Assembly: GCA_963713955.1 (NCBI GenBank)
Contig: OY970216.1
Span: 506,252-570,251, forward strand
Source: an uncultured bacterium
Lineage (GTDB): Bacteria; Patescibacteriota; Minisyncoccia; UBA6257; GWB1-50-10
Direction of reading: 5' to 3'
Length of the DNA: 64,000 bases
Below are positions 9,220 to 34,522 of the stretch, piece after piece. Within the stretch, counting starts at the first letter, position 1, and every line of letters begins with the position of its first letter. The position numbers were made by a program, and so were the translations under genes. Under the pieces are notes generated by a model, which saw nothing but the letters and a program-made list of their open reading frames with translations, searched no databases and was not told the origin of the DNA.

Positions 9220-9288
9220 GCAGGCACTCCTTCCGAAGGCTAAGACTTGGGCGTCGCCCCGGAGACTGCCTGAGGAAGGAGTGCCTGC
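9220..9288. repeat. REP/MITE-like element copy A. A 40-nt core GAAGGCTAAGACTTGGGCGTCGCCCCGGAGACTGCCTGAG is flanked by 15-bp inverted arms GCAGGCACTCCTTCC / GGAAGGAGTGCCTGC
   Basis: Core is identical (40/40) to 34461-34500. It shares the motif TAAGACTTGGGC..GCCCCGGAG with copies at 12941-13021 and 26082-26153. Confidence 0.7.
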
Positions 9289-9300
9289 GAACAAAAAAGG

Positions 9301-11268
9301 TTAACCTTCTTCCTCTTCGGTCGCGGTGCCGGGTTTTTTCCAGCTTGACCAATCGCAATCCGGATATCGCGAGCAGCCGTAGAAAATCCTACCTTTCTTG
9401 GTTTTCTTCAATCGTATTTCGCCCTCGCCGCATTTCGGGCAAGGACCGAAAACCTCGCTCGGCTTCACGATCGATTTCGTGTTCTTGCATTCCGGAAAGC
9501 CGGAACAAGCGAGGAATTTGCCGAATCGCCCCATCTTGATCACCATCGACTTGCCGCATTTGTCGCACTTCTCGTCCGTCATTTGGGGAGCGAGCGATTC
9601 CTCTTTTTTCACGCTCTCGTATTTTTCTTTCAGCTCCTTGGAAAACGGCTCATAAAAATCGCCCAAAAGCTTCCGCCAGTTTTCTTTTCCCTCCGCTACC
9701 TCGTCCAACTCTTCTTCCATTTTTGCCGTGAACTGGATGTCCACGATTTTCGGGAAATTCTCCACGAGAACCCTATTAACCAATTCGCCGGTCTCAGTCG
9801 GTTCAAATCTCCGATCTTTGTTCTTCACCACGTAATTTCTGGTTTGAATCACAGAGATAATGGGAGCATAGGTCGAGGGTCGTCCGATGCCATAAGCTTC
9901 GAGGGTCTTAATGAGACTCGCTTCATTGTATCTCGCCGGCGGTTCGGTGAAGTGTTCCGTGGGCTCGAGTTTCACTAAGTCAACTTTATCTCCTTCCTTC
10001 AAAAACGGCAGCGTCTTTTCCTCGAACTCCTGCGGCCAAACCTTGAGGAAGCCGTCAAACTTCAGAGAAATGCCATTGGCCTTAAAGAGATATTCTTTGG
10101 CCGCAATTTCGACGCTCTCAGTGTCGAAAACGGCCTGCGGCATCTGGGAAGCGATGAATCTCCTCCAGATCAAATCGTAAAGCTTCCGTTCTTTTTCATC
10201 CTCGACAGATATCTCTTTGGATTGAAGCAGGGGATTGGTTGGCCTTATAGCCTCATGAGCTTCCTGCGCCAGCTTGGATTTGTTCTGAAATCTCCGCGGA
10301 GTTTCAATAAGATACTTTTCGCCAAATTCTTCTTTTATGAACTTCCTGCCTAAAACCAGAGATTCGGACGAAAGATTGACTGAGTCGGTTCTCATATAGG
10401 TTATGAAACCGTTTTCATAGAGACGCTGAGCGAACATCATTGTTTGCCGGGCACTGAATCTCAAACGGCGATTGGCTTCCTGCTGCATAGTACTCGTCGT
10501 AAAAGGCGGCAGGGGATTTCTTTTGTACTCTTTATTTTCGATTGACGCGGTCTTAAATTCCGCGCTTTTTAAGTCAGAGGTGATTTTGTCAACTTCTTCC
10601 TTACTTCTGATCCCCGGTTTTTCTATGGTTTTTCCGTCCACCTTGTAAAGAAATGCCTTGAATTCTTGCTGAGATTTTCTCTCTCGAAGCAGCGCGTCGA
10701 GCGTCCAGTAGGCTTCCGGCTTGAACTTCCTTATTTCTTCTTCACGCTCCGCCACAAGTCGCAGAGCGACGGATTGCACACGGCCTGCCGACAACCCCCG
10801 GAATATCTTTTTCCACAAAAACGGCGACAACTCATAGCCAACCAGTCGATCCAAAATTCTTCTGGCTTGCTGAGCGTCCACGAGGTTCATGTCGATCGTA
10901 CGCGGTTTCTCAAGCGCTTCCGCGAGAGCCCGTTCCGTTATTTCATGGAAAACGATGCGTTCCGCCTTGTCATCCAGTCCCAAAACCTGGGACAAATGCC
11001 AGGCGATGGCTTCTCCTTCGCGATCTTCATCGGATGCGAGGATCACGCTTTCCGATTTGGCGGCCAGTTTCTTCAGGGCCGTTACCAGCTTCTTCGACTT
11101 CATTGGAACTATATAGTGCGGTTCGAACTGATGCTCGAGGTCGATGCCAAGCTTGCTTTTGGGCAAATCTCGCACGTGGCCGAAAGAGGATTCCACGCGG
11201 AAATCCTTTCCCAAGAATTTAGTTATGGTTTTGGCCTTAGTGGGTGATTCCACGATTACCAACTTCAT
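9301..11268 (-). CDS. topA: DNA topoisomerase I with C-terminal zinc ribbons
   Basis: TOPRIM N-terminus MKLVIVESPTKAKTITKFLG...VESSFGHVRDLP. Active-site region MRTDSVNLS. C-terminal CDKCGKSM...CSGFPECKN and CPKCGEG...CSRYPDC. Confidence 0.95.
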   Translation of the reverse strand: MKLVIVESPTKAKTITKFLGKDFRVESSFGHVRDLPKSKLGIDLEHQFEPHYIVPMKSKKLVTALKKLAAKSESVILASDEDREGEAIAWHLSQVLGLDDKAERIVFHEITERALAEALEKPRTIDMNLVDAQQARRILDRLVGYELSPFLWKKIFRGLSAGRVQSVALRLVAEREEEIRKFKPEAYWTLDALLRERKSQQEFKAFLYKVDGKTIEKPGIRSKEEVDKITSDLKSAEFKTASIENKEYKRNPLPPFTTSTMQQEANRRLRFSARQTMMFAQRLYENGFITYMRTDSVNLSSESLVLGRKFIKEEFGEKYLIETPRRFQNKSKLAQEAHEAIRPTNPLLQSKEISVEDEKERKLYDLIWRRFIASQMPQAVFDTESVEIAAKEYLFKANGISLKFDGFLKVWPQEFEEKTLPFLKEGDKVDLVKLEPTEHFTEPPARYNEASLIKTLEAYGIGRPSTYAPIISVIQTRNYVVKNKDRRFEPTETGELVNRVLVENFPKIVDIQFTAKMEEELDEVAEGKENWRKLLGDFYEPFSKELKEKYESVKKEESLAPQMTDEKCDKCGKSMVIKMGRFGKFLACSGFPECKNTKSIVKPSEVFGPCPKCGEGEIRLKKTKKGRIFYGCSRYPDCDWSSWKKPGTATEEEEG

Positions 11269-12158
11269 AGAGTGTTCACTAACTTAAATCTTCCTTCCCT
11301 TTCATCGACTACCCCCGAAAGAATCAGGAATGTCAACTTCCGGCTTATGATATGAGTCTCAAGATGGGTTATTTCCGATAATTTGTCAATGGTGAGAGCG
11401 TCCGCCGAATCTCTGAGGGATGAAACGAGAAGCAATTCGTCCCCGTCGAAAAGCATTTGTCTCTGCCGGTTTTCCAGCAAGAGATAACCGAAGTTGCGGG
11501 CGGTTTCTTTCAGATCTTCCAGTATTTGTTCGATGTCGGAAACCAGTCGGGCTCCATTTCTCAAAAGAAGGTGTGACCCTATATAGTTAAGACTTCTCGC
11601 CGGACCCGGCATTACGAAAACTTCTCTTCCTTCTTCGGCGGCAAGTCTCGCGGTAACCAGTGCTCCCGAACGCTTGGGCGCTTCTATAACGATGGTCGCA
11701 AGGCTGAGACCGCTCACAATTCTATTCCTCTCTAAAAATCTCACCGGATAAGGGGGATCATCGGGAGGGTATTCAGAAATCACACACCCGCCATTTTCCA
11801 GTATTCCGGCTAGAAGTCTCTCATGCGCCCGAGGATAAACCGAGTTGAGTCCGTTCGCGAGAACCGCCACCGTCCTGCCTTTCCGCCGGACGACGCTCGC
11901 CTGAGCTGCTCCGTCTATGCCGAGAGCAAGTCCGCTCACGACTGTTATTCCTTCGCGCGCCAATCCCTCGGCAATTTCCCCGGCTAACATCCTCCCTTCC
12001 TCGGTGGCTTTCCGGGTACCGACAATGGCTACCATTACCTCTCCATCGGATGGCAAAATCCCCCGGTAAAAAAGGTTCGAGGGGGCATTTTTTGTCTCTC
12101 TGAGAAGCCGGGGATAGGACTTGTCTCCCAAAGAGACCGTTTTAATCTTCGCAGGCAT
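11265..12158 (-). CDS. dprA: DNA processing protein DprA (Smf)
   Basis: Rossmann-like motifs VAIVGTRKATEEG, VVSGLALGIDGAAQ, ISEYPPDDPP and RNRIVSGLS, typical of DprA. Confidence 0.9.
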   Translation of the reverse strand: MPAKIKTVSLGDKSYPRLLRETKNAPSNLFYRGILPSDGEVMVAIVGTRKATEEGRMLAGEIAEGLAREGITVVSGLALGIDGAAQASVVRRKGRTVAVLANGLNSVYPRAHERLLAGILENGGCVISEYPPDDPPYPVRFLERNRIVSGLSLATIVIEAPKRSGALVTARLAAEEGREVFVMPGPARSLNYIGSHLLLRNGARLVSDIEQILEDLKETARNFGYLLLENRQRQMLFDGDELLLVSSLRDSADALTIDKLSEITHLETHIISRKLTFLILSGVVDEREGRFKLVNTL

Positions 12159-12193
12159 TAGTGTTATAATAAAACCGACCGATTTACGAGATA

Positions 12194-12718
12194 ATGAACA
12201 ATTTTAAGAAACGTTTGATCAACGAACTGGTTATAACTCTTATCATAATGATAGCACTTATCGGCGGCATTTTGTTTTTTAAGGGGAGTATCGAGACGTA
12301 TGCCGAGAGCATAACGGTCGCGAGAGCCCGGCTGGCGCACCTTTCGAGCGGAGTACTCGAGCTTTCCAATCTTCAATCCCAGTATAGCCAGGTGGCGAAC
12401 TATTTTAACGTCCTGAACGGCATCGTGCCTTCTTACTACGACCTCATAAATCTCAACAAAGACCTCCAATCGCTGGCTGCCGGTCAGAACCTGAGCTATT
12501 CTTTTTCGTTCGCCGGCGAAAATCCAAAGAGCACGAACGGGTTCGGTTCAGTAAACTTCAATCTTTCCGTGAGTTCCGCGAACTTGGATAGCTTGCTTTC
12601 GTTCTTGAACTCGCTCCAACACTTCAAATATCTGAGCGCCGTTGACGGCATTTCATTCAGCCCCCAAGCCGATAACACGGTCACCATGTCAGTGAGAGGC
12701 CGCGTATTCTACAAATAA
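12194..12718 (+). CDS. Membrane-anchored protein, possibly PilO-like pilus assembly component
   Basis: N-terminal TM helix (LVITLIIMIALIGGILFF) followed by a coiled-coil-like region. A pilin-like gene lies nearby at 15917. This is a weak call. Confidence 0.3.
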   Translation: MNNFKKRLINELVITLIIMIALIGGILFFKGSIETYAESITVARARLAHLSSGVLELSNLQSQYSQVANYFNVLNGIVPSYYDLINLNKDLQSLAAGQNLSYSFSFAGENPKSTNGFGSVNFNLSVSSANLDSLLSFLNSLQHFKYLSAVDGISFSPQADNTVTMSVRGRVFYK

Positions 12719-12728
12719 TATCTGGACG

Positions 12729-12938
12729 ATGGAAAAAATAAAAAAGAAAAAATCGCGGAAACAGGAAATATTTTTGCTCATGGCTTTTGTGATGTTCGTC
12801 ATAACGCTCCTTTCCGCAATCTATCTTGTAACGTCTCTCGGGGAAAACATAGGAGAAACGCTGAAGCTTCCGCCGATCAATAATCAGAGTGCGCAATTTG
12901 ACATCCAGGGCTACCAAAAATTAGACTTAACCCAGTAA
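12729..12938 (+). CDS. Small membrane protein, unknown function
   Basis: 69 aa with a single TM segment (IFLLMAFVMFVITLLSAIYLV). Confidence 0.3.
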   Translation: MEKIKKKKSRKQEIFLLMAFVMFVITLLSAIYLVTSLGENIGETLKLPPINNQSAQFDIQGYQKLDLTQ

Positions 12939-12940
12939 CG

Positions 12941-13021
12941 GGGAGCTCGGTAAGCCGAAAAAGTGTGCGCTCCGGGGCGCTAGCCCAAGTCTTACCCACT
13001 TTTTCGCCTTACCGAGCTCCC
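12941..13021. repeat. REP/MITE-like element copy B (81-bp imperfect palindrome GGGAGCTCGGTAAG...CTTACCGAGCTCCC). It is the reverse-orientation homolog of 26082-26153
   Basis: Outer 14-bp and inner CGAAAAAGTG/CACTTTTTCG inverted repeats. The core GCGCTCCGGGGCGCTAGCCCAAGTCTTACCC is the reverse complement of the core in copy C. Confidence 0.7.
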
Positions 13022-13046
13022 TCAGAATAAGTAAAAAGGGAGGTCT

Positions 13047-13064
13047 GCGCATGTAGTTCAGTGG
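13047..13064 (+). other. 5' fragment of a second tRNA-Ile-like sequence (GCGCATGTAGTTCAGTGG, acceptor + D stem/loop start)
   Basis: Its perfect complement CATGCGC lies at 13334-13340 after a T arm. See 13294..13341. Confidence 0.5.
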
Positions 13065-13196
13065 GTTGAAAGCAAATTGCTTTGCTTTCAACGGGCGAAT
13101 ACCTGTGTTAATTTATATATAGTAATTTCGCCCCGGAAGAACGCGTTCCTGATATCTTCGATATAACTGGTTCGCTCGTTCGAAATGAAAAATAAT

Positions 13197-13268
13197 GGGC
13201 ATATAGTTCAGTGGTAGAACGCTGTCCTGATAAGACAGAGGTCCCAGGTTCAATCCCTGGTATGCCCA
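13197..13268 (+). tRNA. tRNA-Ile (anticodon GAU)
   Basis: Manual cloverleaf: GGGCATA/TATGCCC acceptor, GTTC/GAAC D stem, CTGTC-CTGATAA-GACAG anticodon arm, CCAGG-TTCAATC-CCTGG T arm. 72 nt. It is flanked by inverted repeats (..CGAAATGAAAAATAA / TTCTTTTTCATTTCTCG..). Confidence 0.9.
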
Positions 13269-13293
13269 CCCATTCTTTTTCATTTCTCGCTCG

Positions 13294-13341
13294 CTGCCAG
13301 TTATAAGACAGAGGTCGTAGGTTCGATTCCTACCATGCGCA
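13294..13341 (+). other. 3' fragment of the second tRNA-Ile-like sequence (anticodon-loop-like AGTTATAAGACAG, variable AGGTC, T arm GTAGG-TTCGATT-CCTAC, acceptor CATGCGC, A)
   Basis: Pairs perfectly with the 5' fragment at 13047-13053. The middle part (D stem 3' strand and anticodon stem 5' strand) is absent. Confidence 0.5.
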
Positions 13342-13423
13342 CAAGCGAGTGAAATGGAAAAGTATTTTTACATTTCCGAGCGCAGTCGCATGGGAACCGA
13401 AAGGTCACCATACGCACCAATCA

Positions 13424-13495
13424 GGGCCCGTAGTTCAGTGGCAGAACGCCGCTTTTGCAAAGCGGAGGTCAGGAGTCCAATTCTCCTCGGGTCCA
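13424..13495 (+). tRNA. tRNA-Ala (anticodon UGC)
   Basis: GGGCCCG acceptor (with a G3-U70 pair), GTTC/GAAC D stem, CCGCT-TTTGCAA-AGCGG anticodon arm, AGGAG-TCCAATT-CTCCT T arm. 72 nt. Confidence 0.9.
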
Positions 13496-13610
13496 CCTTG
13501 AGTATGTGCTCAACTTGTGTTCGAAAAAGCCTCATGAATACTAGAATTTCTCGGCCAGACCTAGCTTTTCCAAGTTCAAGTCCTCGGGGTATTGATTAAG
13601 AGTAGAAAGT

Positions 13611-14913: not shown

Positions 14914-14978
14914 AAAAAATGCCCCACTTAAGGGGTATAATGAACTATAAATTCTATCCTATCATAAATCGGAGAAAA

Positions 14979-15052
14979 GTCAACCCTGCTAGTACAAACT
15001 CGATTCCACTCCGTGCGTCAGCAAATCGAGTTTGTACTACGGGGTCAACCCT
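14979..15052. repeat. Mini palindromic element. Perfect 15-bp inverted repeats (AGTACAAACTCGATT / AATCGAGTTTGTACT) with an 18-nt loop, bracketed by a 9-bp direct repeat GTCAACCCT
   Basis: Lies in the divergent region between the 3D-domain gene and the rluA-family gene. Confidence 0.6.
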
Positions 15053-15097
15053 TTGACGCTCCCCAGGATTAGGTAAATAGAGGTATAATTAAATGCA

Positions 15098-15850
15098 ATG
15101 ACGCTTCAAAACATAGATATAATCTACGAAAATAACGATTTCCTGGCTATAAATAAGCCAGCCGGGTGGACAGTCCACAGGCCCCGATCGACTGCCTCGG
15201 TCCGCCCTGACGACCTTTTCATAACCGACTGGCTCCTAGAACGCTACCCGGAGATAGAAGGCGTCGGAGACGATCCAGTCTTGAGGCCAGGAATCGTCCA
15301 CCGGCTCGATAAGAACACCTCCGGGGTACTCCTTATAGCCAAAAACCAGCCGACTTTCGAATATCTGAAGAGCTTATTCCAAGCCAGCCAGATTCAAAAG
15401 ACCTACCTAGCCCTTATTTACGGCAAACTGGTAGGGAAGGGGATCATAAATAAACCGATAGGGATAAAATCAGGAACTGTCAAAAGGAGCACCAATGCCC
15501 AGGATATGAAGATGCTGAAAGACGCCGTGACTGAATACCGGGTTCTTAAAGTACTTCAGGGAGGAAAATACACTCTTCTCGAAATCCACCCTAAAACAGG
15601 TAAGACTCATCAAATACGGGTTCACCTCGCAAGCATAGGCCATCCGGTAGTCGGGGATTCCCTCTACGGCAGAAAGAAGGAGGACATGAACCTATCGAGA
15701 CAGTTCCTCCATGCCCAAAGTCTTGAATTCACCTTCAAAGATGGCAGTCGGATAAAAATAGAAGCTGATCTTCCTTACGATCTTCAAGAGATACTCCAGA
15801 GTTTAGCCATGAGCGAAGAACCCCGGATTGATTCGATCGAATATGACTGA
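15098..15850 (+). CDS. RluA-family 23S rRNA/tRNA pseudouridine synthase (no S4 domain)
   Basis: FLAINKPAGWTVH, HRLDKNTSGVLLIAKN (catalytic Asp), HQIRVHLASIGHPVVGD. Confidence 0.85.
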   Translation: MTLQNIDIIYENNDFLAINKPAGWTVHRPRSTASVRPDDLFITDWLLERYPEIEGVGDDPVLRPGIVHRLDKNTSGVLLIAKNQPTFEYLKSLFQASQIQKTYLALIYGKLVGKGIINKPIGIKSGTVKRSTNAQDMKMLKDAVTEYRVLKVLQGGKYTLLEIHPKTGKTHQIRVHLASIGHPVVGDSLYGRKKEDMNLSRQFLHAQSLEFTFKDGSRIKIEADLPYDLQEILQSLAMSEEPRIDSIEYD

Positions 15851-15861
15851 CCCGAAGCCTC

Positions 15862-15885
15862 CTGAGCACCCGCTTGGCGCTCAGG
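15862..15885 (+). terminator. Hairpin GCCTCCTGAGC..GCTCAGGAGGC after the rluA-family gene
   Basis: 11-bp inverted repeat with no clear U tract. It is followed by TGTGATATAAT (15897-15907), an extended -10 for the pilin-like gene, which has a 9-nt leader. Confidence 0.4.
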
Positions 15886-15916
15886 AGGCTCAGTCTGTGT
15901 GATATAATAAATCAAC

Positions 15917-17703: not shown

Positions 17704-18375
17704 ATGGGGAGGGGGATAAAACCGCAGGGGAAAGTTAAAATTAAATGGTCTCCTGCATTTGCCTACGTGATCGGGGTTATTACAACCGATGGCAACCTTT
17801 CTATTGATAAAAGACATATCAATATAACATCAAAGGATGAGGAGATGGTTAAAACGGTTGCGAAGTGCATTGATATCAAAAACAAGATTGGTCGTAAAGC
17901 AAGAGGCGGCGAGAAAGAAAAGAAATATTTCGTACTCCAATTCGGCGATGTTTTATTTTATAACTTTCTCCTCTCGATCGGCCTCACGCCGCATAAATCA
18001 AAGACGCTCCGTTCTATCGCCGTGCCTGATAAATACTTCTTCGATTTCTTGCGCGGGCATTTTGACGGTGACGGAACTTTTTATTCCTACTGGGATCTGC
18101 GCTGGAAATCAAGTTTTATGTTCTATACGGAATTTATTTCGGCCAGCAAGGCTCATATTGAATGGTTGCGGGAGAGAATATGCAACATCCTGAAAATACA
18201 CGGCCACATTACAAGAAGTGGGAATAACTCCGTGTATCAATTGAAATATGCCAAGGGGGAGTCATTGAAATTACTGGCTAAAATGTACTACAATAAGGAC
18301 GTAATTTGTTTAAGGAGGAAGAAAGATAAGGTAGAGAAAGCCCTAAAAACAGATTCAAACGCGCGGGTGTCGTAA
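17704..18375 (+). CDS. LAGLIDADG-family homing endonuclease (two-motif, single-chain type)
   Basis: Motif 1 AYVIGVITTDGNLSI and motif 2 FLRGHFDGDGTFYSY. The 3' end (stop 18373-18375) overlaps the first 15 nt of tRNA-Leu. Confidence 0.8.
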   Translation: MGRGIKPQGKVKIKWSPAFAYVIGVITTDGNLSIDKRHINITSKDEEMVKTVAKCIDIKNKIGRKARGGEKEKKYFVLQFGDVLFYNFLLSIGLTPHKSKTLRSIAVPDKYFFDFLRGHFDGDGTFYSYWDLRWKSSFMFYTEFISASKAHIEWLRERICNILKIHGHITRSGNNSVYQLKYAKGESLKLLAKMYYNKDVICLRRKKDKVEKALKTDSNARVS

Positions 18376-18447
18376 CTGGTAGCCGAGCATCCTTGAGGTG
18401 GATGTGCCCGTAAGGGCGTGGAGGTTCGAGTCCTCTCCCGCGCACCA
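18361..18447 (+). tRNA. tRNA-Leu (anticodon GAG), class II with long variable arm, CCA encoded
   Basis: GCGCGGG/CCCGCGC acceptor, 3-bp D stem TCG/CGA, CATCC-TTGAGGT-GGATG anticodon arm, 15-nt variable stem-loop, GGAGG-TTCGAGT-CCTCT T arm, ACCA. Confidence 0.85.
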
Positions 18448-25372: not shown

Positions 25373-26105
25373 AACGCGCATATTCAGAGAAGGCGAGGAT
25401 CTCATGTCTTTTATCGTGGATCACGTCAAAAAAGTTCCGGAACGATCAATAATAGTCGTGACGTCAAAAATCGTGGCGCTCTCGGAAAAAAGAACCGCGG
25501 TAAAAGAAAATCCGAAAACCAAAGAGAAGCTCATCCGTGAAGAAAGCGACTTGGCCATCCCGACGAAATACGTCTGGCTTACTCTCAAGAACGGCATGCT
25601 TATGGCTTCGGCCGGCATCGACGAATCGAACGCCGATGGGAAATTGATACTCCTCCCGCGGGACAGCTTTAAGTCCGCCCGGATTCTCCGGAAAGCTTTG
25701 CAACAAAAATACAGAGTGAAACGCCTCGGCATTTTAATCACCGACAGCAGAACAACGCCGCTCCGGGCCGGCGTTGGCGGCACGGCACTCGGCTACGCCG
25801 GTTTCGGTGGTATACGAGACTACCAGGGTAAACCAGATCTCTTCGGCCGGAAATTCAGGTTTTCGCGCACGAATCTGGCAGACGGCCTCGCCACGGCTGC
25901 AGTCCTTGAAATGGGAGAGGGAAAGGAACGGCAACCGCTCGCCGTCATAGAAAGGGCGCCGGTCGAATTCCACGAACGGACAAACCGCAAGGAACTTTCC
26001 ATAGATGTCCGGGACGACATGTATGCCCCGTTTTTCAAAAACGGAGAAAGTCCAATTACGAAACTCGCTCTCAAACGAGGGTCGGTAAGACGAAAAAGTG
26101 GGTAA
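25353..26105 (+). CDS. CofE-like (F420-0:gamma-glutamyl ligase family) protein
   Basis: VVTSKIVALSE, SAGIDESNADG, LLPRDSFKSAR, ILITDSRTTPLRAGVGGTALG, all characteristic CofE/FbiB N-domain motifs. Confidence 0.5.
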   Translation: MIITPVKTRIFREGEDLMSFIVDHVKKVPERSIIVVTSKIVALSEKRTAVKENPKTKEKLIREESDLAIPTKYVWLTLKNGMLMASAGIDESNADGKLILLPRDSFKSARILRKALQQKYRVKRLGILITDSRTTPLRAGVGGTALGYAGFGGIRDYQGKPDLFGRKFRFSRTNLADGLATAAVLEMGEGKERQPLAVIERAPVEFHERTNRKELSIDVRDDMYAPFFKNGESPITKLALKRGSVRRKSG

Positions 26106-26153
26106 GACTTGGGCTAGCGCCCCGGAGCGCACACTTTTTCGGCTTGCCGAGCC
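26082..26153. repeat. REP/MITE-like element copy C (homologous to the reverse complement of 12941-13021). Overlaps the 3' end of the CofE-like gene
   Basis: TCGGTAAGACGAAAAAGTGGGTAAGACTTGGGCTAGCGCCCCGGAGCGCACACTTTTTCGGCTTGCCGAGCC aligns nearly full-length to the reverse complement of copy B. Confidence 0.7.
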
Positions 26154-26174
26154 TCGTCGTGGTATAATGACTGC

Positions 26175-26648
26175 ATGAAACACTTAATACCCTTGATCAC
26201 CGCCGAGGCCCACTGCGACGTGCCTTGCGGAATTTATGATCCAACGCCGGCGAAAATTGCCGCAAAAACCGTCGCGCGCATGGTCGATCAAATCGAGGAT
26301 ACGCACCCGCCGAAAGACTGGAATGATGCCGTTGCGGTTTCGCTCTACATCCAGAGCATTTCCCGCCGGGTCGCCGTGAAGGAAGAGCACGCGGGAATTT
26401 GCAAGAAAGAGCTCTATACCCTCTGGTCCGACTTCTTCAAACCGGAACACCTTGCGAAATATCCAAACCTTCACGACATGTTCTGGAAAGCGACCAAGCT
26501 CTGCTCGAAAGACAAACAGAACATCAGTAAAGAAGATGCCACAGCGCTTGTCTCGGCCGTCGACGAAATTGCCAAGGTCTTCTACGAAATAAAAGGCAAT
26601 CCCGAACGGTACGATTCATATAAGGACGTGACGGACAAGTTGTACTAA
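26175..26648 (+). CDS. sodN: Nickel superoxide dismutase precursor (NiSOD)
   Basis: 12-aa leader then the Ni-hook HCDVPCGIYDPTPA (consensus HCDLPCGVYDPA). Size and 4-helix composition fit SodN. Confidence 0.85.
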   Translation: MKHLIPLITAEAHCDVPCGIYDPTPAKIAAKTVARMVDQIEDTHPPKDWNDAVAVSLYIQSISRRVAVKEEHAGICKKELYTLWSDFFKPEHLAKYPNLHDMFWKATKLCSKDKQNISKEDATALVSAVDEIAKVFYEIKGNPERYDSYKDVTDKLY

Positions 26649-26993: not shown

Positions 26994-29900
26994 ATGGTAA
27001 AGATACAAATAAACAAAGGATCAAAAGAGCCCAAAAAAGAACCCAAGAAGAAACCGAAGGAGGAGCCAAGGAAAGAAGAAAAGCCGAAGGAAAAGGAGGT
27101 ATCGTACAGTGCCAAGAACATCTACGTTCTGGAGGGCCTCGAACCGGTCAGAAAACGTCCGGGCATGTACATCGGCTCCACCGGAGTCGACGGTCTCCAT
27201 CATTTGGTCTGGGAAGTGGTGGACAATTCCATCGACGAGGCGATGGGGGGATACGCCAAAAACATCACTATCGAACTCCTAAAAAACAACCGGGTTGCCG
27301 TAACCGATGATGGGCGTGGCATCCCCGTCGACATCCATTCTCAAACCAAGAAATCGGCCCTCGAAACTGTTATGACGACACTCCACGCCGGCGGAAAATT
27401 CGGCGGAGAATCATACAAAGTTTCCGGCGGTCTCCACGGCGTCGGCGTCTCAGTCGTAAACGCTCTCTCGACGTGGCTCCGCGTTGAGGTCTACCGCGAC
27501 AATGCTGTTTATTTCCAGGAATACAAACGGGGGAAACCGGAATTCTCCATGAAGAAAAACGGCAAATCAGCCCACACGGGCACAAAAGTCATCTTCGATG
27601 CCGATCCGGAAATTTTCCAAAAGATAGAGTACGACCGGAAAAGAATCATCGACCACTTGCGGCAACAGGCATACCTCACGAAAGGCGTGAGGATAAACAT
27701 AATCGACACGAGAGAAGATGAGCCGTTCAATTACAGTTTTTACTTCGACGGAGGATTGAAATCCTTTCTCGGTTATTTGGTCGACGGAGAAACGCCGATA
27801 CAGGACGAATTCTTTTACGTGCATAAAACTTACCAGGATATAGAGATTGAAGTTGCCATCACTTACATAAACGACCAGGAAGCCAAGGAGTTGAGCTTCG
27901 CCAACAATATTTATACCTCGGACGGCGGAATGCACCTGACCGGCCTCCGCAGCGCCATGACAAGGAGCTTGAATGACTACGCGAGGAAAGAAGAATACGT
28001 GAAGGAGGCGGACGAGAATCTGACGGGCGACGATATCAGGGAAGGTATAGTCTCGATAATATCCATAAAAATACACGAACCCCAGTTCGAAGGACAAACC
28101 AAAGCCCGGCTTGGAAACCCGGAAGCCAGGACCGCCGTTGAGTACGTAGTGAACGAAGCGCTCAAGGAATTCCTGGAGAAGCATCCGCAGGATGCCAAGA
28201 AAATAATCGAGAAAAACCTGATAGCCGCCAAGGCCCGGAAAGCCGCCAAAGCCGCGAAGGACACGGTCCTCCGGAAAGGCGCACTGGAGGGATTGACTTT
28301 ACCCGGCAAACTCGCCGATTGTTCTTCCCGCAAAGCCGAGGAGTCGGAGCTTTTCATAGTCGAAGGCGATTCGGCCGGTGGATGTTTCGACGGAAACACT
28401 AAGGTTGCTTTAACCGACGGACGAAATCTTAGTTTTAAAGAATTGATAAAGGAAGATAAACAAGGAAAGAAGAACTTCTGTTATACGATACAGAACGATG
28501 GCCATGTCGGCATCGCTCCGATATTGAATCCGAGAATCACCAAGAAAAATGCGAAAGTCATTAAAATCGTTCTGGATAGTAACGAGGAATTGACATGCAC
28601 GCCAGATCATAAATTCATGCTGGCCGACGGCACTTTTAAAGCAGCTCAAGAATTAAAGAAGACTGATTCGCTCATGCCGCTTTACCGGCAATATTCAAAA
28701 TTAGGGAAGAGAATCACGATCGAAGGATATGAGATGATTTTTGATCCATCGGAAAAACGATGGGTTTTCACTCATCTTCTTTCAGATCAATACAATCTGA
28801 AAAAAGATGTTTATAATCCGAGCGAAAGACCATATCGACACCACAAAGATTTTAATAAGCTGAATAATAATCCAGAAAACATTATCCGTATGTCAAAAGA
28901 AGAACATCTTGCCGTCCACAGGGAAATGGCGCATCTTACGCTTCAGCGACCCGATGTGCGGGAAAAACTAAAAGCATTGCACCGGAAACCTGAATTCAGG
29001 GAAAAGATTAGCCGAGCGATGATGAAAAAACACGAGGAGCTATCCGAGAGAGCCAGTAAGCAATGGGAATCGCCGGAATATCGTTCCTTCATGGCGAAAA
29101 AATTCATGGATTTCTATGAAAACAACGAAAATTACAGAATCAAAAACCGCGAATCACTTACGCAAGCCCAACGAAAATACTGGAGCAGCGAAGAAAACAG
29201 GAAATCGCAGGCTGAACGGGTAAAAATCTTCTTTGCGGAACATCCAGAAAGAATTCGGGAACTTTCATTGAGTGCCAGAAAACAGTGGAACAATGAAACG
29301 CTTCGGGAATGGAGAAAGGAAAAAACCAAAACACAGTGGACGAATGAATTCAGGGAAAAACGAAAAAGATCGTATGACGAAACGTATCTTGCAAAAGCAA
29401 TGCGAGCATTGCGCAATTTCTACGAACGTACCGGCACAGTTTCCGTTGAGGAATACGATTCGTTGCGCCAAAAGACCAACGATAAATCTCTATTGCGATT
29501 CGACACTCTTGTTGATAGGTTTTTCAACGGCAAAAAGGAACGTCTCATTGATGCCGTAATCCACTACAACCATAAGATAATTCGCATAGAACCGTTATCA
29601 AGGAAAATCGATGTTTATGACCTGGAGGTTCCTGAAACTCATAACTTCGCGCTCGCGGGCGGCATATTCGTGCATAACAGCGCCAAGCAGGGACGCGACC
29701 GGAGATTCCAGGCGATCCTTCCGCTCCGCGGCAAGATCATGAACGTGGAGAAATCGAGAATCGACAAGATGCTCGTGAATAAAGAGATCCGGTCGCTCGT
29801 GATCGCCCTCGGAACCGCCATATCGGAAAACTTCGACATCTCGAAACTCCGCTACCACAAGATCGTCATCATGACCGATGCCGACGTCGATGGCGCACAC

Positions 29901-30290
29901 ATCCGAACGCTCCTCCTCACTCTCTTCTACCGATATTTCCCGAAGATCATGGAAGGCGGTTACATCTACATCGCCCAGCCGCCACTCTATCGCGTCCAAA
30001 AGGGAAAAGAATTCCAATACGCCTACAGTGACGACGAGCGCGACAAACTGATAAAGAAGATGGGCGGCGAAGGAGTGAATATCCAGCGATACAAGGGCTT
30101 GGGAGAAATGAACCCCGAGCAACTGTGGGAAACCACCATGAACCCGGCGAGCCGTCTCATGAAACGGATAAACATCGAGGATGCGATCGAAGCGAACCGG
30201 ATGTTCGATATCCTGATGGGCGAGCTTGTGGAACCACGGAAGAATTTCATCCAGGCGAACGCCGTCTACGCGAAGAACATCGACATTTAA
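26994..30290 (+). CDS. gyrB: DNA gyrase subunit B carrying an in-frame intein. N-terminal Lys/Glu-rich extension
   Basis: ATPase (GLHHLVWEVVDNSIDEAMGG), transducer and TOPRIM motifs. EGDSAGG is interrupted by CFDGNTKVAL... and resumes ...VHN|SAKQGRDRRFQAILPLRGKIMNVE. Flanking exteins total about 666 aa. Confidence 0.9.
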   Translation: MVKIQINKGSKEPKKEPKKKPKEEPRKEEKPKEKEVSYSAKNIYVLEGLEPVRKRPGMYIGSTGVDGLHHLVWEVVDNSIDEAMGGYAKNITIELLKNNRVAVTDDGRGIPVDIHSQTKKSALETVMTTLHAGGKFGGESYKVSGGLHGVGVSVVNALSTWLRVEVYRDNAVYFQEYKRGKPEFSMKKNGKSAHTGTKVIFDADPEIFQKIEYDRKRIIDHLRQQAYLTKGVRINIIDTREDEPFNYSFYFDGGLKSFLGYLVDGETPIQDEFFYVHKTYQDIEIEVAITYINDQEAKELSFANNIYTSDGGMHLTGLRSAMTRSLNDYARKEEYVKEADENLTGDDIREGIVSIISIKIHEPQFEGQTKARLGNPEARTAVEYVVNEALKEFLEKHPQDAKKIIEKNLIAAKARKAAKAAKDTVLRKGALEGLTLPGKLADCSSRKAEESELFIVEGDSAGGCFDGNTKVALTDGRNLSFKELIKEDKQGKKNFCYTIQNDGHVGIAPILNPRITKKNAKVIKIVLDSNEELTCTPDHKFMLADGTFKAAQELKKTDSLMPLYRQYSKLGKRITIEGYEMIFDPSEKRWVFTHLLSDQYNLKKDVYNPSERPYRHHKDFNKLNNNPENIIRMSKEEHLAVHREMAHLTLQRPDVREKLKALHRKPEFREKISRAMMKKHEELSERASKQWESPEYRSFMAKKFMDFYENNENYRIKNRESLTQAQRKYWSSEENRKSQAERVKIFFAEHPERIRELSLSARKQWNNETLREWRKEKTKTQWTNEFREKRKRSYDETYLAKAMRALRNFYERTGTVSVEEYDSLRQKTNDKSLLRFDTLVDRFFNGKKERLIDAVIHYNHKIIRIEPLSRKIDVYDLEVPETHNFALAGGIFVHNSAKQGRDRRFQAILPLRGKIMNVEKSRIDKMLVNKEIRSLVIALGTAISENFDISKLRYHKIVIMTDADVDGAHIRTLLLTLFYRYFPKIMEGGYIYIAQPPLYRVQKGKEFQYAYSDDERDKLIKKMGGEGVNIQRYKGLGEMNPEQLWETTMNPASRLMKRINIEDAIEANRMFDILMGELVEPRKNFIQANAVYAKNIDI
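28383..29678 (+). mobile_element. GyrB intein (432 aa, Cys1...His-Asn) with an HNH endonuclease motif and a repeated helical segment
   Basis: Block A CFDGNTKVALTDG, C-terminal ...IFVHN followed by Ser+1. Internal HHKDFNKLNNNPENIIRMSKEEHLAVH matches the HNH (HH..N..N...H) pattern. About 5 repeats end in KQW/KYW/TQW. Confidence 0.8.
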
Positions 30291-30304
30291 ACACCTCTCA
30301 AAGT

Positions 30305-30340
30305 GACCCCCGGCTCTCGGAGAGAACCGGGGGTCTTTTG
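30305..30340 (+). terminator. Rho-independent terminator after gyrB
   Basis: GACCCCCGGCTCTC..GAGAACCGGGGGTC hairpin + TTTTG. Confidence 0.7.
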
Positions 30341-30341
30341 A

Positions 30342-30494
30342 TTGACAGGAAAGGAAATGCTTGATACTATGGGAACGTTCCGTAGATAGCAGGCATCCGC
30401 CGAAGAGGCGGAAGTAAGACCTGCCGAGGAAGAAGCTTCGCTGAAGTCGGGTCGATTCTTCTTAACGTCTGCGGCAACGCAGATTTTTTGCTGT
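30342..30494 (+). promoter_or_regulatory. rplJ promoter (TTGACA-17-TACTAT) and a structured L10 leader ending in an attenuator hairpin TCTGCGGCAACGCAGA + TTTTTTG
   Basis: -35 at 30342-30347, -10 at 30365-30370. A leader of about 125 nt has a hairpin with U tract immediately before the rplJ ATG, consistent with L10(L12)4 autoregulatory leaders. Confidence 0.55.
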
Positions 30495-30992
30495 ATGAAA
30501 ACGAAAGCGCAAAAAAAGGAACAGATAGAAACGGGAACGAAAGAGCTTGAAAAAAGCGAAACCGTCGTCTTCACGGACTTTACCGGACTCACGGCCAATG
30601 ACTTGAACGGTTTCAGGCGATTGGTGAGAGAGATCGGCGGCGTCATGATCGTCATGAAGAAGCGACTTCTCACGTTGGCTCTGAAAGAAAAGGGGATAGA
30701 CTTCGATGCCAAAAAATTGAATGGGCAGGTCGGCGTCGTATTTTCGCCCAAGGATTCCGTCGAAACGGCCAACACCGTCTATAAGTTCGGCAAACCCTTC
30801 AAGACCAAAAAAATCTTCAATATTCTGGGAGGGTTCGATTTGAAAGACAAGAGATTCATGGAAAGCGCGGAAGTCGAGACGCTGGGGCAACTGCCTTCGC
30901 GGGAAGCGCTCCTCGGGCAACTGGCGTTCATGCTCACCGTCCCAATCAAGAAAGTCCTGTTCGTTTTGAACGAAAAAGCGAAACGAGGATGA
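30495..30992 (+). CDS. rplJ: 50S ribosomal protein L10
   Basis: [40 protein letters not shown], an L10 signature. Confidence 0.9.
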
Positions 30993-31015
30993 GGTCGTAC
31001 CATAAACCAAAAAAC

Positions 31016-31387
31016 ATGGAAAAATTCAACGATATCATAGAAAAAATAGAGGAGCTCTCGGTCGCGGAACTTTCCGAGCTCGTCAAAGCGCTCGAAGAGA
31101 AATTCGGCGTATCGGCGGCGGCAATGGCCGTTGCGGGACCGGGAAACGGCGGAAACGGAGCGGCAGCCGAGGAAAAGACATCCTGGGGCGTGATGCTCAA
31201 GACCACCGGTGATCAGAAAATCAATGTCATCAAGATCCTGCGAGAGGCGACCGGATTGGGGCTCAAAGAAGCCAAGGATATGGCCGACGCAGCTCCGAAA
31301 CTGGTCAAGGAAGGATTAAAGAAAGAGGAAGCCGAGGAACTCAAGAAAAAACTCGAGGAAGTCGGCGCCGTTGCGGAATTGCAATAG
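31016..31387 (+). CDS. rplL: 50S ribosomal protein L7/L12
   Basis: N-terminal dimerisation helix ([26 protein letters not shown]), Ala/Gly hinge, C-terminal domain [24 protein letters not shown]. The ATG at 31016 was chosen. Confidence 0.9.
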
Positions 31388-31400
31388 AACAGACACAGAA

Positions 31401-31432
31401 ACAGCGCCTTGAAAAAAGCGCTGTTTTGTTTT
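31401..31432 (+). terminator. Rho-independent terminator after rplL
   Basis: ACAGCGC..GCGCTGT hairpin + TTTGTTTT. Confidence 0.7.
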
Positions 31433-31446
31433 AATTTAAGGATACC

Positions 31447-31518
31447 GGACAGTTAGCTCAGCGGTAGAGCACTGCATTCACATTGCAGGGGTCACAGGTT
31501 CGAACCCTGTACTGTCCA
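31447..31518 (+). tRNA. tRNA-Val (anticodon CAC)
   Basis: GGACAGT/ACTGTCC acceptor, GCTC/GAGC D stem, CTGCA-TTCACAT-TGCAG anticodon arm, ACAGG-TTCGAAC-CCTGT T arm. 72 nt. Confidence 0.85.
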
Positions 31519-31522
31519 CTAT

Positions 31523-32578
31523 ATGTGGTTCAATAAACCAAAATTTGAAAGACCAGAACCGACGGTAATCGGGCCGGCTTCTGATGAGACAAAAGAGAGT
31601 GTAAAAAGACTTATTCTCGAAAGATTCGGGGAAAAGCATCTCGAACAACTATCGGAGGAAGACCGCGAAAAACTGGAATCCTCAGAGTTAAAAAAGGAGC
31701 CATACGAGAAATTGGTCATAGAGAGAGCCAATAAGATCACCAACGAACTTTTGCGGGATGCTGGCCAAAGTCCGTTTGAGATACCGGAAAGAAACATACA
31801 CGATATACCAAATCGATTATTCGAAAAACTAGAAGATGACGGTGATACGAGGGCGGTAACTTACTCTGACCAGCAATCTATTTTCATAAATTCTGATAAG
31901 ATCAGGAATCCAATCGATAGATCGGCAACAATACTACACGAAATGACCCATCTGAAAAGTTTTCTATCATTGGAAGTCCATGAAGACGACCTTTTCATCC
32001 ATCGAGCCGGACTCAAGGTTGCTCCGACAAGAAAAAAGAGGGAGGATTTGGGATACTATAATTCCTTTACCGGTTTAAACGAGGCTGTAGTAACAGAAAT
32101 GGAAAAAACATACCTAACCCAGTTGTTGGAATTCAATAAATTTATACGCAATGAGAAAGAATGGGAATCGTCAGAAGAAGCACTAAAGACAAAAGGAGAT
32201 ATAGCGAAGGAAAAAAACATGGATCCAGAAGAGATAATATGCCTGACTAAAATCGAGGGTGGTTATGAATATAAAATATTCCCTTATCCCGCCCAACGGA
32301 AAGTGCTACACCACACCGTGAATAAGATCTTCGAGGACAACCGCAAAAAATTTAAGTCTGAAAATGAAGTGATGAAACTCTTCTTTAACGCTCATTTCAA
32401 CGGACAATTGATAGAAATAGGAAGATTGATAGAAAAATCTTTCGGCGAAGGATCATTCAGAATAGTAGGGATGATGGATGACGACAGCAAATCGGCTAAC
32501 AGAGTAATGGACTATCTCAAGAAATATAAAAAGAAAAACCAAACTAACGCCGAGGAGTTAAAGGAGATAGGAAAGTAA
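31523..32578 (+). CDS. Hypothetical protein with HEXXH zinc-metallopeptidase-like motif
   Basis: 351 aa. TILHEMTHLKSF contains HEMTH. No other family assignment is possible by eye. Confidence 0.4.
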   Translation: MWFNKPKFERPEPTVIGPASDETKESVKRLILERFGEKHLEQLSEEDREKLESSELKKEPYEKLVIERANKITNELLRDAGQSPFEIPERNIHDIPNRLFEKLEDDGDTRAVTYSDQQSIFINSDKIRNPIDRSATILHEMTHLKSFLSLEVHEDDLFIHRAGLKVAPTRKKREDLGYYNSFTGLNEAVVTEMEKTYLTQLLEFNKFIRNEKEWESSEEALKTKGDIAKEKNMDPEEIICLTKIEGGYEYKIFPYPAQRKVLHHTVNKIFEDNRKKFKSENEVMKLFFNAHFNGQLIEIGRLIEKSFGEGSFRIVGMMDDDSKSANRVMDYLKKYKKKNQTNAEELKEIGK

Positions 32579-32597
32579 ACAATTTTCGGGCAACTCA

Positions 32598-33041
32598 ATG
32601 AGAGAGAAAACAAGACTTATAGCGTGGGCGGGCATTATAGCCGGCATCATAATAATATTGCTCTTGGCCGGGGTGCTAATATTCGTCCCTCAAAACAATA
32701 AAACCAAGACTACGGCGCAAACGGGCACGGCTACAACATCGACCATACCGGATGTTAACATGATATATCCCACAGGCAGCGAGATGTGGACAATCGGGCA
32801 AACGTATACCATGAAGTGGAGCGGGGGAGCGCCGACCGTAAGTATCTTCCTTATTAACAAATGGGCGGAACAATTCGGAGCGTCCGTCAGCAGTTTTGAT
32901 AGGATCTACAACATTCCAAACAGGGGAATATATGATTACACCGTCCCTGCACACATCAATACCACTCACAACGAATATCAAATCTGCATAGAAGATGGAC
33001 CGAGATCCGCTTGCAGCGGCTATTTCTCAATCTCGAAATAG
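32598..33041 (+). CDS. Membrane-anchored secreted hypothetical protein
   Basis: N-terminal TM/signal (LIAWAGIIAGIIIILLLAGVLIF), a Thr-rich linker, two Cys near the C-terminus. Confidence 0.35.
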   Translation: MREKTRLIAWAGIIAGIIIILLLAGVLIFVPQNNKTKTTAQTGTATTSTIPDVNMIYPTGSEMWTIGQTYTMKWSGGAPTVSIFLINKWAEQFGASVSSFDRIYNIPNRGIYDYTVPAHINTTHNEYQICIEDGPRSACSGYFSISK

Positions 33042-33067
33042 AACAATTCCAGAGTTATAATCAACTT

Positions 33068-33646
33068 ATGCAAAAAAGAGTGATTATCGTCCACGGCTGG
33101 GACGGAACCCCCGAAAAAGCCTGGTTCCCGTGGCTCAAGAAAGAACTGGAAGCGAAGGGATTTGAGGTCATCGTTCCCCAACTTCCCGATACCGGAAGGC
33201 CAAGGATATACAATTGGGTCCCGAAACTCGCAGAAGTCGCCGGCACGCCGAACGAAAATACGTATTTCGTCGGCCACAGTATGGGTAACCAGACGATAGC
33301 GCGGTACCTCGAATCGCTGCCGGAAGGAATCAAAGTCGGTGGAGCGGTATTTGTCGCCGGATTTTTCAAGCATATCACGAACGCCGACAACAACCAGGAT
33401 GAAACAGAAACAAGAAAACATTGGCTCGAAGCACCATTGGATTTGAACAAAGTGAGATCGCGTCTTTCAAAGAGCGTCGCCATATTCTCGGACGACGATC
33501 CGTACGTGCCGCTCGACAACCAAGACGATTTCAGGGATAGGCTGAATTCGAAGATCGTCATCGAACATGCGAAGGGACACTTCAGGAACAGCGACAAATG
33601 TCTCGAACTCCCGTCAGCTCTCGAAGCAGTAATGAGCTTGCAATGA
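33068..33646 (+). CDS. Alpha/beta-hydrolase fold serine hydrolase (RBBP9/YdeN-like)
   Basis: VIIVHGWDG, nucleophile elbow GHSMG, C-terminal His region. The ATG at 33068 was chosen to avoid overlap with the upstream gene. Confidence 0.6.
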   Translation: MQKRVIIVHGWDGTPEKAWFPWLKKELEAKGFEVIVPQLPDTGRPRIYNWVPKLAEVAGTPNENTYFVGHSMGNQTIARYLESLPEGIKVGGAVFVAGFFKHITNADNNQDETETRKHWLEAPLDLNKVRSRLSKSVAIFSDDDPYVPLDNQDDFRDRLNSKIVIEHAKGHFRNSDKCLELPSALEAVMSLQ

Positions 33647-34407
33647 TCAAAGCGATTATCTTCGATCTCGACGGCACGGCAATCCCGATGCAGGAAAATG
33701 CCTTGCCGTCCAAACGACTCACATCGGATATCGCAAAAATAAACGATAGATTCATCGTCTCCGCGGCAACAGGGCGGTCAATACCAAAAGCAAGACCCAT
33801 CTTGAAAAATCTGAATCTCAAAGACCCTTGCATCATATACGGCGGCGCTCAAATCATAAATCCTCAAAGCGAGGAGGTTCTCTGGGAAAAAAGAATGTCG
33901 GAGAAGCAAGTCCAAGGCATCATCAATGCCTGCAAACCGTATTCTTACGAAATACTATTCAGTGATGAATCCCTTGGGGAAGGGGCGCCGGCAAGTCATA
34001 AAACCGCCGCCGGTCCCGAGTTGATCGTTTACATTATGACTATGCAAAAGGAGGATAGCGAAGTTGTTGCATCGGAATTGAAAAAAATAGATGACCTGGC
34101 GGTCCATGGAGCCGGATCCTGGACCGAAGGCCGCATAGATCTTCACATAACACATCGCGAAGCGAACAAAAAACACGCCATCAAGGAATGGCTGGAAATC
34201 ATAGGAGCAAAAAAAGAAGAGGTTGTCGGCGTGGGGGATAATGATAATGACTTACCGCTCCTCGAGATGGTAGGCTACAAGGTTGCCATGGGAAATGCCA
34301 CCGACGAACTGAAATCGATCGCCGACTATGTCGCTCCTTCCATTGAAGAAGACGGTCTCGCTCAAGCGATCGAAAAATTATTTCCAATCCCCAATAAAAT
34401 AACATAA
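33643..34407 (+). CDS. HAD-superfamily hydrolase, Cof-like (subfamily IIB) phosphatase
   Basis: Motif I IIFDLDGT, motif III/IV VGVGDNDNDLPLLEMVGYKVAMGNATDELK. ATGA overlap with the upstream gene. Confidence 0.75.
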   Translation: MIKAIIFDLDGTAIPMQENALPSKRLTSDIAKINDRFIVSAATGRSIPKARPILKNLNLKDPCIIYGGAQIINPQSEEVLWEKRMSEKQVQGIINACKPYSYEILFSDESLGEGAPASHKTAAGPELIVYIMTMQKEDSEVVASELKKIDDLAVHGAGSWTEGRIDLHITHREANKKHAIKEWLEIIGAKKEEVVGVGDNDNDLPLLEMVGYKVAMGNATDELKSIADYVAPSIEEDGLAQAIEKLFPIPNKIT

Positions 34408-34438
34408 ATCCACTTGAGAGAGGATTTGGTTTTTTCCT

Positions 34439-34522
34439 GAGCGAGCCAAGCATTTCTCGCGAAGGCTAAGACTTGGGCGTCGCCCCGGAGACTGCCTGAG
34501 CGGGGAATGCTTGGCGAGCGCG
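34439..34522. repeat. REP/MITE-like element copy D. The same 40-nt core as copy A (34461-34500, 40/40 identical), flanked by different inverted arms (GCGAGCCAAGCATT... / ...AATGCTTGGCGAGCGC)
   Basis: Core identical to 9235-9274. The arms are copy-specific but again form an inverted repeat. Confidence 0.7.

Follow-up and report, generated by a model that had tools for sequence, protein, structure and literature searches.

A family of hairpin-forming elements was identified from four copies (A, B, C and D) in a 64,000-nucleotide (nt) stretch of contig OY970216.1, referred to here as the window, whose closest named relatives are Patescibacteria. The family appears to be confined to Patescibacteria, the bacteria of the candidate phyla radiation (CPR), and has apparently not been described previously. 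Its copies share a nearly invariant folded tip on stems of variable sequence. One strand, designated S (reading TAAGACUU...), folds better than its complement in most copies; about a quarter of the copies lie in frame within conserved genes, and copies have been gained, lost and recently duplicated among close relatives. These elements are interpreted, with moderate confidence, as non-autonomous palindromic insertion elements resembling the Rickettsia palindromic elements (RPE), repetitive extragenic palindromes (REP) and MITEs (miniature inverted-repeat transposable elements), which would be acted on in single-stranded form by a putative factor.

The four copies in the window were found where a sequence-only reading of the same DNA had placed them:

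Copy A: 9220-9288, + strand, type 1 (GUC triloop), core at 9241-9264
Copy B: 12941-13021, - strand, type 2 (UAGC tetraloop), core at 12970-12994
Copy C: 26075-26157, + strand, type 2, core at 26103-26127
Copy D: 34439-34522, + strand, type 1, core at 34467-34490

All four copies contain TAAGACTTGGGC-N3/4-GCCCCGGAG; a submotif common to them had been recognized in that reading. The relaxed pattern TAAGACTTGGGC-N(1-8)-GCCCCGGAG occurs in the window at the four core positions and strands given above, and was found in none of 100 shuffles. The 40-mer GAAGGCTAAGACTTGGGCGTCGCCCCGGAGACTGCCTGAG is present at two sites in the window (9235-9274 and 34461-34500, both +), where chance predicts none; copies A and D thus carry the same 40-mer core, and the arms around it are unlike, as had been reported. 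Copies B and C, described before as near-identical in opposite orientation, agree at 69 of 71 aligned positions. This 71-nt unit (TCGG...CCGA) is bounded in each case by a copy-specific outer inverted repeat, GGGAGC/GCTCCC in B and ACGAGG/CCTCGT in C. All four copies are predicted to fold into long hairpins (-47 to -55 kcal/mol, z -5.4 to -7.8; copy A, -49.1 kcal/mol, z -7.8). The base module of copy D is formed by GCGAGC (34441-34446), which pairs with GCGAGC (34514-34519) to give tandem G.A pairs. A covariance model built from 76 relatives was scored at every position of all 64,000 nt. Copies A-D were its sole matches (E 3e-16 to 2e-4; A 1.6e-5, B 2.8e-16, C 2.8e-16 and D 1.7e-4), and the next match had E 1.5. 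A scan tolerating up to five substitutions returned the same four window copies only.

Outside the window, one genome per species was scanned for the exact core (21 specified bases). The same bases were detected in at least 113 loci, which hold 125 copies, and the repeats therefore constitute a dispersed family rather than a local duplication, as the sequence-only reading had proposed. Among the matches listed, all records that name a lineage are Patescibacteria (Saccharibacteria, Paceibacterota, Minisyncoccia, Kaiser-, Jorgensen-, Peregrini- and Peribacteria), and the remaining records are labelled only 'bacterium'. The elements are about 70-110 nt long, with a density of only about one copy per 16-50 kb. 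The 125 copies fall into two types, which coexist in the window and in other genomes. Type 1 contains a GUC loop preceded by CGAAGGC and followed by ACA/ACU-GCCUGAG, and in type 2 the loop is NAGC or NAAC, with CG or UG after it. No family match was found in the viral contigs, plasmids and phages searched, and no copies lie inside the rRNA and tRNA genes of the 18 loci scanned. In addition, 246 kb around the CofE-like genes of other relatives contains no copies, which indicates that the element is dispensable for many lineages and not universal. The Rfam 15 search at gathering score detected tRNAs only and no family for the element, and at E<=10 copies A and C gave only sub-threshold matches to microRNA hairpins. 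No description of the element was found in literature searches. Known RNA families, including twister, pistol, hatchet, hammerhead and riboswitches, were accordingly rejected as its identity.

From the base to the top, the hairpin is composed of a base module, a stem, a second G.A module and a tip of 24-25 nt. The base module of many lineages is GCGAG/CGAGC, which forms tandem G.A pairs; numerous copies have GCGAGC/GCGAGC at this position. The middle stem is fixed in length and free in sequence. The second tandem G.A module (CGAAGG/CCUGAG) is located just below the tip. The tip, UAAGACUU-GGGC-loop-GCCC-CGGAG, is nearly invariant and holds a stem of 4 base pairs (bp), for which a compensatory variant (GGGC/GCCC to GGCC/GGCC) exists. 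In the 76 type-2 copies, 87% of the cells are paired compared with 69% after shuffling, and the covariation score of 0.443 (0.132 shuffled) was matched by none of 500 shuffles. The outer stem of these copies is paired in 79% of the cells, and each of its 12 pairs shows two-sided changes. The combination of a constant core with unlike stems, as noticed in the sequence-only reading, is a general and statistically solid property of the family.

The tip also contains a tertiary covarying pair. In the same 76 copies, the third loop base and the base after GGAG form G:C in 61, A:U in 12, G:U in one and other combinations in two copies; the covarying combinations are G:C, A:U and U:A. In type 1, the GUC loop stands opposite GAC. 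Because the loop base covaries with the base after GGAG, this suggests an H-type pseudoknot of two to three pairs, in which the final bases of the loop would pair with the G and the base next to it after GGA, with CGGA as the linker and UAAGACUU as the 8-nt joining strand. In alignment A2, the identity of the first base in the tip loop depends on the closing pair of the outer stem: U accompanies a G-C closing pair in 32 of 34 cases, whereas the other three bases mostly accompany C-G. This link may represent a base triple or be due to lineage only. One of the earlier options pictured the core as a single-stranded segment presented on helices, and this picture has to be replaced, since the core is itself folded through its 4-bp stem and the covarying pair between the loop and the 3' strand. 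The arms had likewise been called copy-specific. They are not so in an arbitrary sense, because subfamilies with full-length consensus sequences are found, which means that the arms have diverged; complementarity fades 32-40 nt from the core. A kink-turn was rejected by inspection, since the 3-nt bulge is missing and the GA/AG order beside the tip is wrong; we read the G.A modules as plain tandem sheared G.A pairs.

The fold belongs to one strand. In 100 of 121 copies, S gives a better fold than the complementary strand, and the arm mismatches on S are biased towards G.T (163, versus 89 A.C) and G.A (322, versus 46 C.T). The asymmetry is kept where S is antisense to the local genes, with the small in-gene sense class as the sole exception (3 versus 8). 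With respect to local genes, S is antisense in 58 and sense in 28 cases overall, and antisense in 25 and sense in eight cases inside genes. A small RNA, one of the options raised by the sequence-only reading, is disfavoured in its simple mRNA-borne or 3'-untranslated form by this antisense excess and by a folded strand that is the same either way.

In 80 of 109 loci (p ~1e-6), third codon positions mark S as the C-rich strand, independent of gene direction. The coding-strand GC skew at these positions (GC3 skew) has a value of -0.171 in genes that are sense to S and of +0.104 in those antisense to it, and its strand-linked component of -0.137 is independent of gene direction. On the assumption of the usual G-rich leading strand, S would lie mostly on the leading-strand template. 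The strand signal within the window is weak.

The sequence-only reading located the copies between genes or at gene 3' ends, which is correct for the window and fails for the family as a whole, since 33 of the 125 copies (~26%) are in frame within conserved open reading frames (ORFs) and free of stop codons in either orientation. The host genes encode MnmA, UvrB, UvrC, RecG, LigA, Tgt, TsaD, TrmD and IleRS-like and ValRS-like aminoacyl-tRNA synthetases, and the copies occupy variable surface loops of these housekeeping proteins. They are presumably translated. S-sense copies occur within the UvrB, Tgt, RecG and ValRS-like genes. In UvrB and Tgt, related genomes carry copies at the same site in opposite orientation and with unrelated arms. 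An intron or a translational bypass was rejected for the in-gene copies, which are all in frame and stop-free in either orientation.

In MnmA, the loop bounded by TGHY and KDQSY ranges from 15 aa (empty) to 71 aa in 120 homologues. A tip peptide of the VSGATPKSY type is present in 28 of the 120 homologues (24 exact and four variant), and there are two further carriers, P0045, in which the element is flipped, and P0111, whose degenerate copy is read in another frame. At the shared MnmA site, pairing in the seven copies amounts to 96.8%, with 16 of 18 outer pairs changed on both sides. Other MnmA homologues contain unrelated hairpin insertions at the same site. Unrelated hairpin insertion families are also present in Patescibacteria (L117:546-1895, L118:477-1748 and L119:7200-7440). 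One of them adds 63 aa to MnmA and has the same AGCGAGC...GCGAGC base module, and its inner hairpin TTGCTCCTGCGGCAA is also found in L119; a second is an AT-rich perfect palindrome in MnmA. In both of these MnmA families the gene-antisense strand folds better.

Intergenic copies occupy short spacers. They frequently overlap the stop codon of the ORF upstream or provide a stop themselves. For 24 copies with ORFs within 30-60 nt on both sides, a split-gene reading was rejected, as these copies lie between different genes; examples are found between the end of RpoC and the start of DnaG, and upstream of DnaK.

Gain and loss were observed among relatives whose TopA proteins are 82-89% identical to that of the window. 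At the topA-map junction, the window has an orphan ORF and copy A, relative L121 has no element, L122 has an extra gene and a type-2 variant, and L119 has another hairpin family. An ortholog of copy B with the same flanks is present in L122 (L122:3136-3190), and the site is empty in L119 and L121. The derived tip stem GGCC/GGCC is common to both L122 copies. Copy D is absent upstream of mraZ in the closest relative (L124), in which homology resumes right after the position of D. In copy C, the 71-nt unit of B recurs almost unchanged at a new site and is enclosed by outer inverted repeats that are likewise new; B is the older of the two, and C was copied from it within the genome. Copy C was reported earlier to overlap the stop of the CofE-like ORF; this stop is the core's own UAA at 26103-26105. 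C extends this ORF to the core UAA: CofE-like homologues stop about 10-14 residues before the end of the window ORF, and their matches to it are confined to query residues 1 to ~230.

The boundaries of the insertions can be placed only to within a few bases at MnmA (L114 versus L064/L108), topA-map and mraZ, because the flanks differ too much or the neighbouring genes differ. Three independent insertions of the B/C subfamily each have their own inverted repeat of 6-7 bp (GGGAGC/GCTCCC, ACGAGG/CCTCGT and GATGGAA/TTTCATC). These flanking repeats indicate either that palindromes are the target or that the hairpin grows outward after insertion.

From these observations we infer a trans-acting factor, a single-stranded intermediate and the following mechanism for the proposed insertion element. 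The conserved tip and the G.A modules would form a recognition surface for the putative factor on single-stranded S, which may be either single-stranded DNA (ssDNA) exposed at replication or an RNA copy. If the factor needs the tip, the tip would stay nearly invariant across the phylum-level candidate groups named above and the stems would drift with compensatory changes. It is also conceivable, and put forward here only tentatively, that the tip is a new functional nucleic-acid fold, either a replication-coupled ssDNA recognition structure or a small ribozyme or aptamer, which would be under purifying selection at dozens of sites, including antisense positions in essential genes.

Several observations weigh against an insertion element. 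No direct target-site duplications were seen at the element boundaries, and the copy-specific inverted repeats that flank the copies are predicted by no standard transposition mechanism. Few degenerate cores were seen, though selfish copies should decay, and within MnmA the hairpin and tip have been maintained at their site on the mRNA-antisense strand; together, the scarcity of decay and this upkeep point to selection or homogenisation acting on resident copies. The preference of S for the C-rich strand could equally reflect a DNA-level function for the host. Searches with Pfam and other databases detected no transposase, recombinase, HUH or Nop-domain gene in the window, so that the association with a recombinase or transposase that the sequence-only reading proposed to check was not found there; the sole features of a related kind in the window are a LAGLIDADG-like ORF, the GyrB intein and RmuC. 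A tblastn search with an IS200 TnpA sequence, covering 1 Mb of sampled DNA, also gave no match, and had low power. Furthermore, the apparent conservation of the core is inflated by the exact core required in the first search, a bias that the MnmA protein set and the extra copies within loci correct only in part.

Some of the same observations would be expected from a host chromosomal site that is read as folded ssDNA during replication, recombination or DNA uptake, that the host would maintain for its usefulness and whose spread would be secondary. Such a site would account for the position of S on the C-rich strand, with a GC3 component independent of gene direction, for a fold asymmetry that tracks S even antisense to mRNA, for the tip and pairing kept in place within MnmA, and for the low number of decayed copies. 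We nevertheless regard it as rather unlikely, and the same holds for the particular forms it could take (a polar sequence, an attC- or dif-like recombination site, a priming site or an uptake signal), because copies are present in one genome and absent from another at the TopA identities given above, 246 kb around the CofE-like genes of relatives is free of them, and their density is low. The strand bias is 73:27, which is not absolute, and is weak in the window; no integrase or recombinase is encoded nearby in the window, and known uptake signals need no hairpins. The protein-binding platform and the recombination site named in the sequence-only reading are both live options. The window alone would suggest a cis-acting structured mRNA element (a 3'-end stabiliser, processing site or protein-binding platform) that benefits the flanking genes, since copies A, C and D follow a same-strand gene and D is located between a stop codon and a canonical terminator. 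The strong stem covariation, G.U pairs, tandem G.A pairs and pseudoknot are also as in functional RNA. This explanation fits the window but not the family, in which copies are antisense in excess both overall and in genes, 26% lie inside ORFs, the folded strand is independent of the direction of transcription and the neighbouring genes are unrelated in function. Even in the window, copy A is downstream of a terminator-like hairpin and none of the four copies has a U-tract, and the explanation is considered improbable.

Transcription from S could also yield independent small RNAs, or a self-cleaving ribozyme or aptamer of a new kind that a mobile hairpin carries at its tip. The compact tip with its tertiary covarying pair is conserved across the named phylum-level candidate groups, the 8-nt joining strand UAAGACUU and the 4-nt linker CGGA are conserved, no known RNA family matches, and the 25:8 antisense excess fits selection against S-sense copies in mRNAs. 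This is judged very unlikely: there is no conserved promoter upstream, the copies fill tiny spacers or coding loops, and S-sense copies exist within essential genes, whose mRNAs would be destroyed by efficient self-cleavage. A chance similarity or a local duplication confined to the window is refuted. The only point in its favour is that the 40-mer itself is at just two window sites, and against it none would be expected by chance and more than 120 further family members were found in other genomes.

Comparison with known systems places the family among palindromic repeats. RPE are short palindromic repeats of a host-dependent bacterium with a reduced genome, which are found between genes and in frame in conserved genes, where they encode a tolerated peptide loop; no transposase is known for them. 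Tolerated in-frame insertion is seen here as well (stop-free copies; the MnmA loop of 15-71 aa). The likeness is one of analogy and not of membership, as RPE-1 to RPE-8 belong to an unrelated taxon (Rickettsia) and were compared by description alone. Unlike RPE, the present element is most conserved in a folded tip of 24-25 nt, which contains a tertiary covarying pair and is retained across the named phylum-level candidate groups. Its fold is specific to one strand and biased with respect to the replication strand, and recent copying within a genome (B to C) is visible; to our knowledge, no such property has been described for RPE.

REP sequences are 20-40 nt long and extragenic, and have a GTAG or CGTC tag at one end (PMC3733652). 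The present elements share with REP, BIME and REPIN sequences (mobilised by RAYT, Y1/HUH transposases whose genes REPs typically flank) the dispersed imperfect palindromes, the single-stranded hairpins, the presumed trans-acting enzyme and the compensatory stems. They differ from REP in length (70-110 nt), in 5' ends that are (A)GCGAG or copy-specific with no GTAG/CGTC tag, in the 26% of copies that are intragenic and in a conserved part that is the apex and not the arms. No RAYT/IS200-like gene was detected in the window by Pfam, nor by the weak tblastn search described above. MITEs (for example Correia, ERIC and bcr1) have conserved terminal inverted repeats from a parent insertion sequence (IS) and direct target-site duplications. 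The present elements resemble them in being non-autonomous, about 100 nt long, hairpin-forming and dispersed, and in that they can fuse to ORFs or supply stop codons. However, conservation in the present family is lowest at the ends and highest at the apex, no IS is present in the window, and the flanks of three B/C-subfamily insertions are inverted and not direct repeats. The earlier label of a REP/MITE-like family is thus correct with regard to a dispersed palindromic repeat, and does not extend to the tag and extragenic rule of REP or to the target-site duplication of MITEs; a parent IS was not found.

Recognition of the structure of one strand, variable stems with conserved non-Watson-Crick features and an orientation bias with respect to replication are shared with integron attC sites and the ends of IS200/IS605. 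An attC identity was rejected, as R/L boxes (RYYYAAC/GTTRRRY), a cassette array and intI are all lacking and the copies are dispersed singletons with no integrase in the window. Unlike IS200/IS605, which have left and right ends, the present family has one hairpin per element. On the assumption of the usual G-rich leading strand, the position of S, mostly on the leading-strand template, would be the reverse of the IS200/IS605 pattern. TIGR units (stem-loop guide RNA units of TIGR-Tas), some of which are found in Parcubacteria, are likewise hairpins, in which the palindromic stems vary and short internal motifs are conserved. They form tandem arrays beside a Nop-domain tas gene and contain two unpaired spacers of 8-12 nt, which do not covary with each other and are bordered by box C (CCA) and box D (UG) (PMC12045711). 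This identity was rejected because the present copies are dispersed singletons, base pairing joins their variable segments and the window lacks a Nop-domain gene. The family is of the palindromic-repeat kind and has an unusually conserved, structured tip.

The window also encodes ribosomal proteins, SecY, TopA, DprA, a CofE-like protein, nickel superoxide dismutase (Ni-SOD), MraZ and a GyrB that bears an intein. Copies A, C and D, three of the four, are on the gene-rich + strand, each after a same-strand gene. Copy A is located between a 593-aa orphan ORF (7309-9090, +) and the stop of topA (9301, -), and a distinct terminator-like hairpin (9093-9118) lies upstream of it. Copy D is located between the stop of a HAD-hydrolase gene (34407) and the mraZ promoter region, with a terminator-like hairpin (34605-34619) downstream. 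An intrinsic terminator was rejected as the identity of the element, as none of A-D is terminator-like or has a U-tract, and these separate hairpins are the canonical terminator-like ones. Copy C is followed by a TGgTATAAT box and the sodN ATG at 26175. The extended -10-like box TGGTATAAT stands directly 3' of C (26157-26177), with the sodN ATG about 10 nt on, and hints at a leaderless or very short-leader Ni-SOD mRNA. Copy B is located between the region of ORF 12194-12718 and a 5' fragment of tRNA-Ile followed by the tRNA-Ile gene.

The junction next to copy B contains a fragment resembling a tRNA 5' end, GCGCATGTAGTTCAGTGG, and then the hairpin GTTGAAAGCAAATTGCTTTGCTTTCAAC (13043-13093). 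The same hairpin is present in relative L119, next to its intact tRNA-Ile, which suggests a rearrangement at this junction. The genes for tRNA-Ile(GAU) and tRNA-Ala(UGC), 13196-13497, stand alone without any rRNA gene in the window; these two tRNAs are the usual pair of the 16S-23S spacer. The ORF 7309-9090 directly upstream of copy A matches nothing in Pfam or NCBIfam, gives only a marginal match to PHROG, and is missing at the same position in three relatives. Another imperfect palindrome, GGAATCAAGCCACGAAATATCG...CGATATTTTGTTCATTCCTTCC, is located between map and this ORF (7149-7226), and recurs in the topA-map spacer of L119 (L119:6990-7200) as part of a hairpin of ~190 nt. More long or nested intergenic inverted repeats without the conserved core are present at 42301-42386, 15841-15905, 14990-15039 and 48392-48531. 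The GyrB ORF (26994-30290, 1098 aa) contains an Intein_splicing domain at residues 473-895, between the GyrB and Toprim domains. A free-standing LAGLIDADG_3 ORF (17704-18375, +), whose 3' end overlaps the start of tRNA-Leu(GAG) at 18361-18447, may be a homing-endonuclease remnant.

Patescibacteria, whose genomes measure about 1 Mb, account for much of the diversity of bacteria and are still little understood. In-frame colonisation of essential genes by the elements would provide a general source of protein insertions and of remodelling of gene ends in these bacteria, and the same property may make the elements a useful marker for tracking strains and lineages. The inverted rather than direct repeats at the flanks would imply a form of insertion or palindrome growth that is not covered by current models of transposition. 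A tip that is nearly invariant, pseudoknotted and strand-specific implies a conserved molecular partner, and this partner, if found, could reveal a new mechanism of mobility or maintenance of ssDNA or RNA. If the tip is indeed a new functional fold, the family would represent a new class of strand-specific, hairpin-borne genome element with dedicated machinery, together with an insertion process that creates or targets palindromes.

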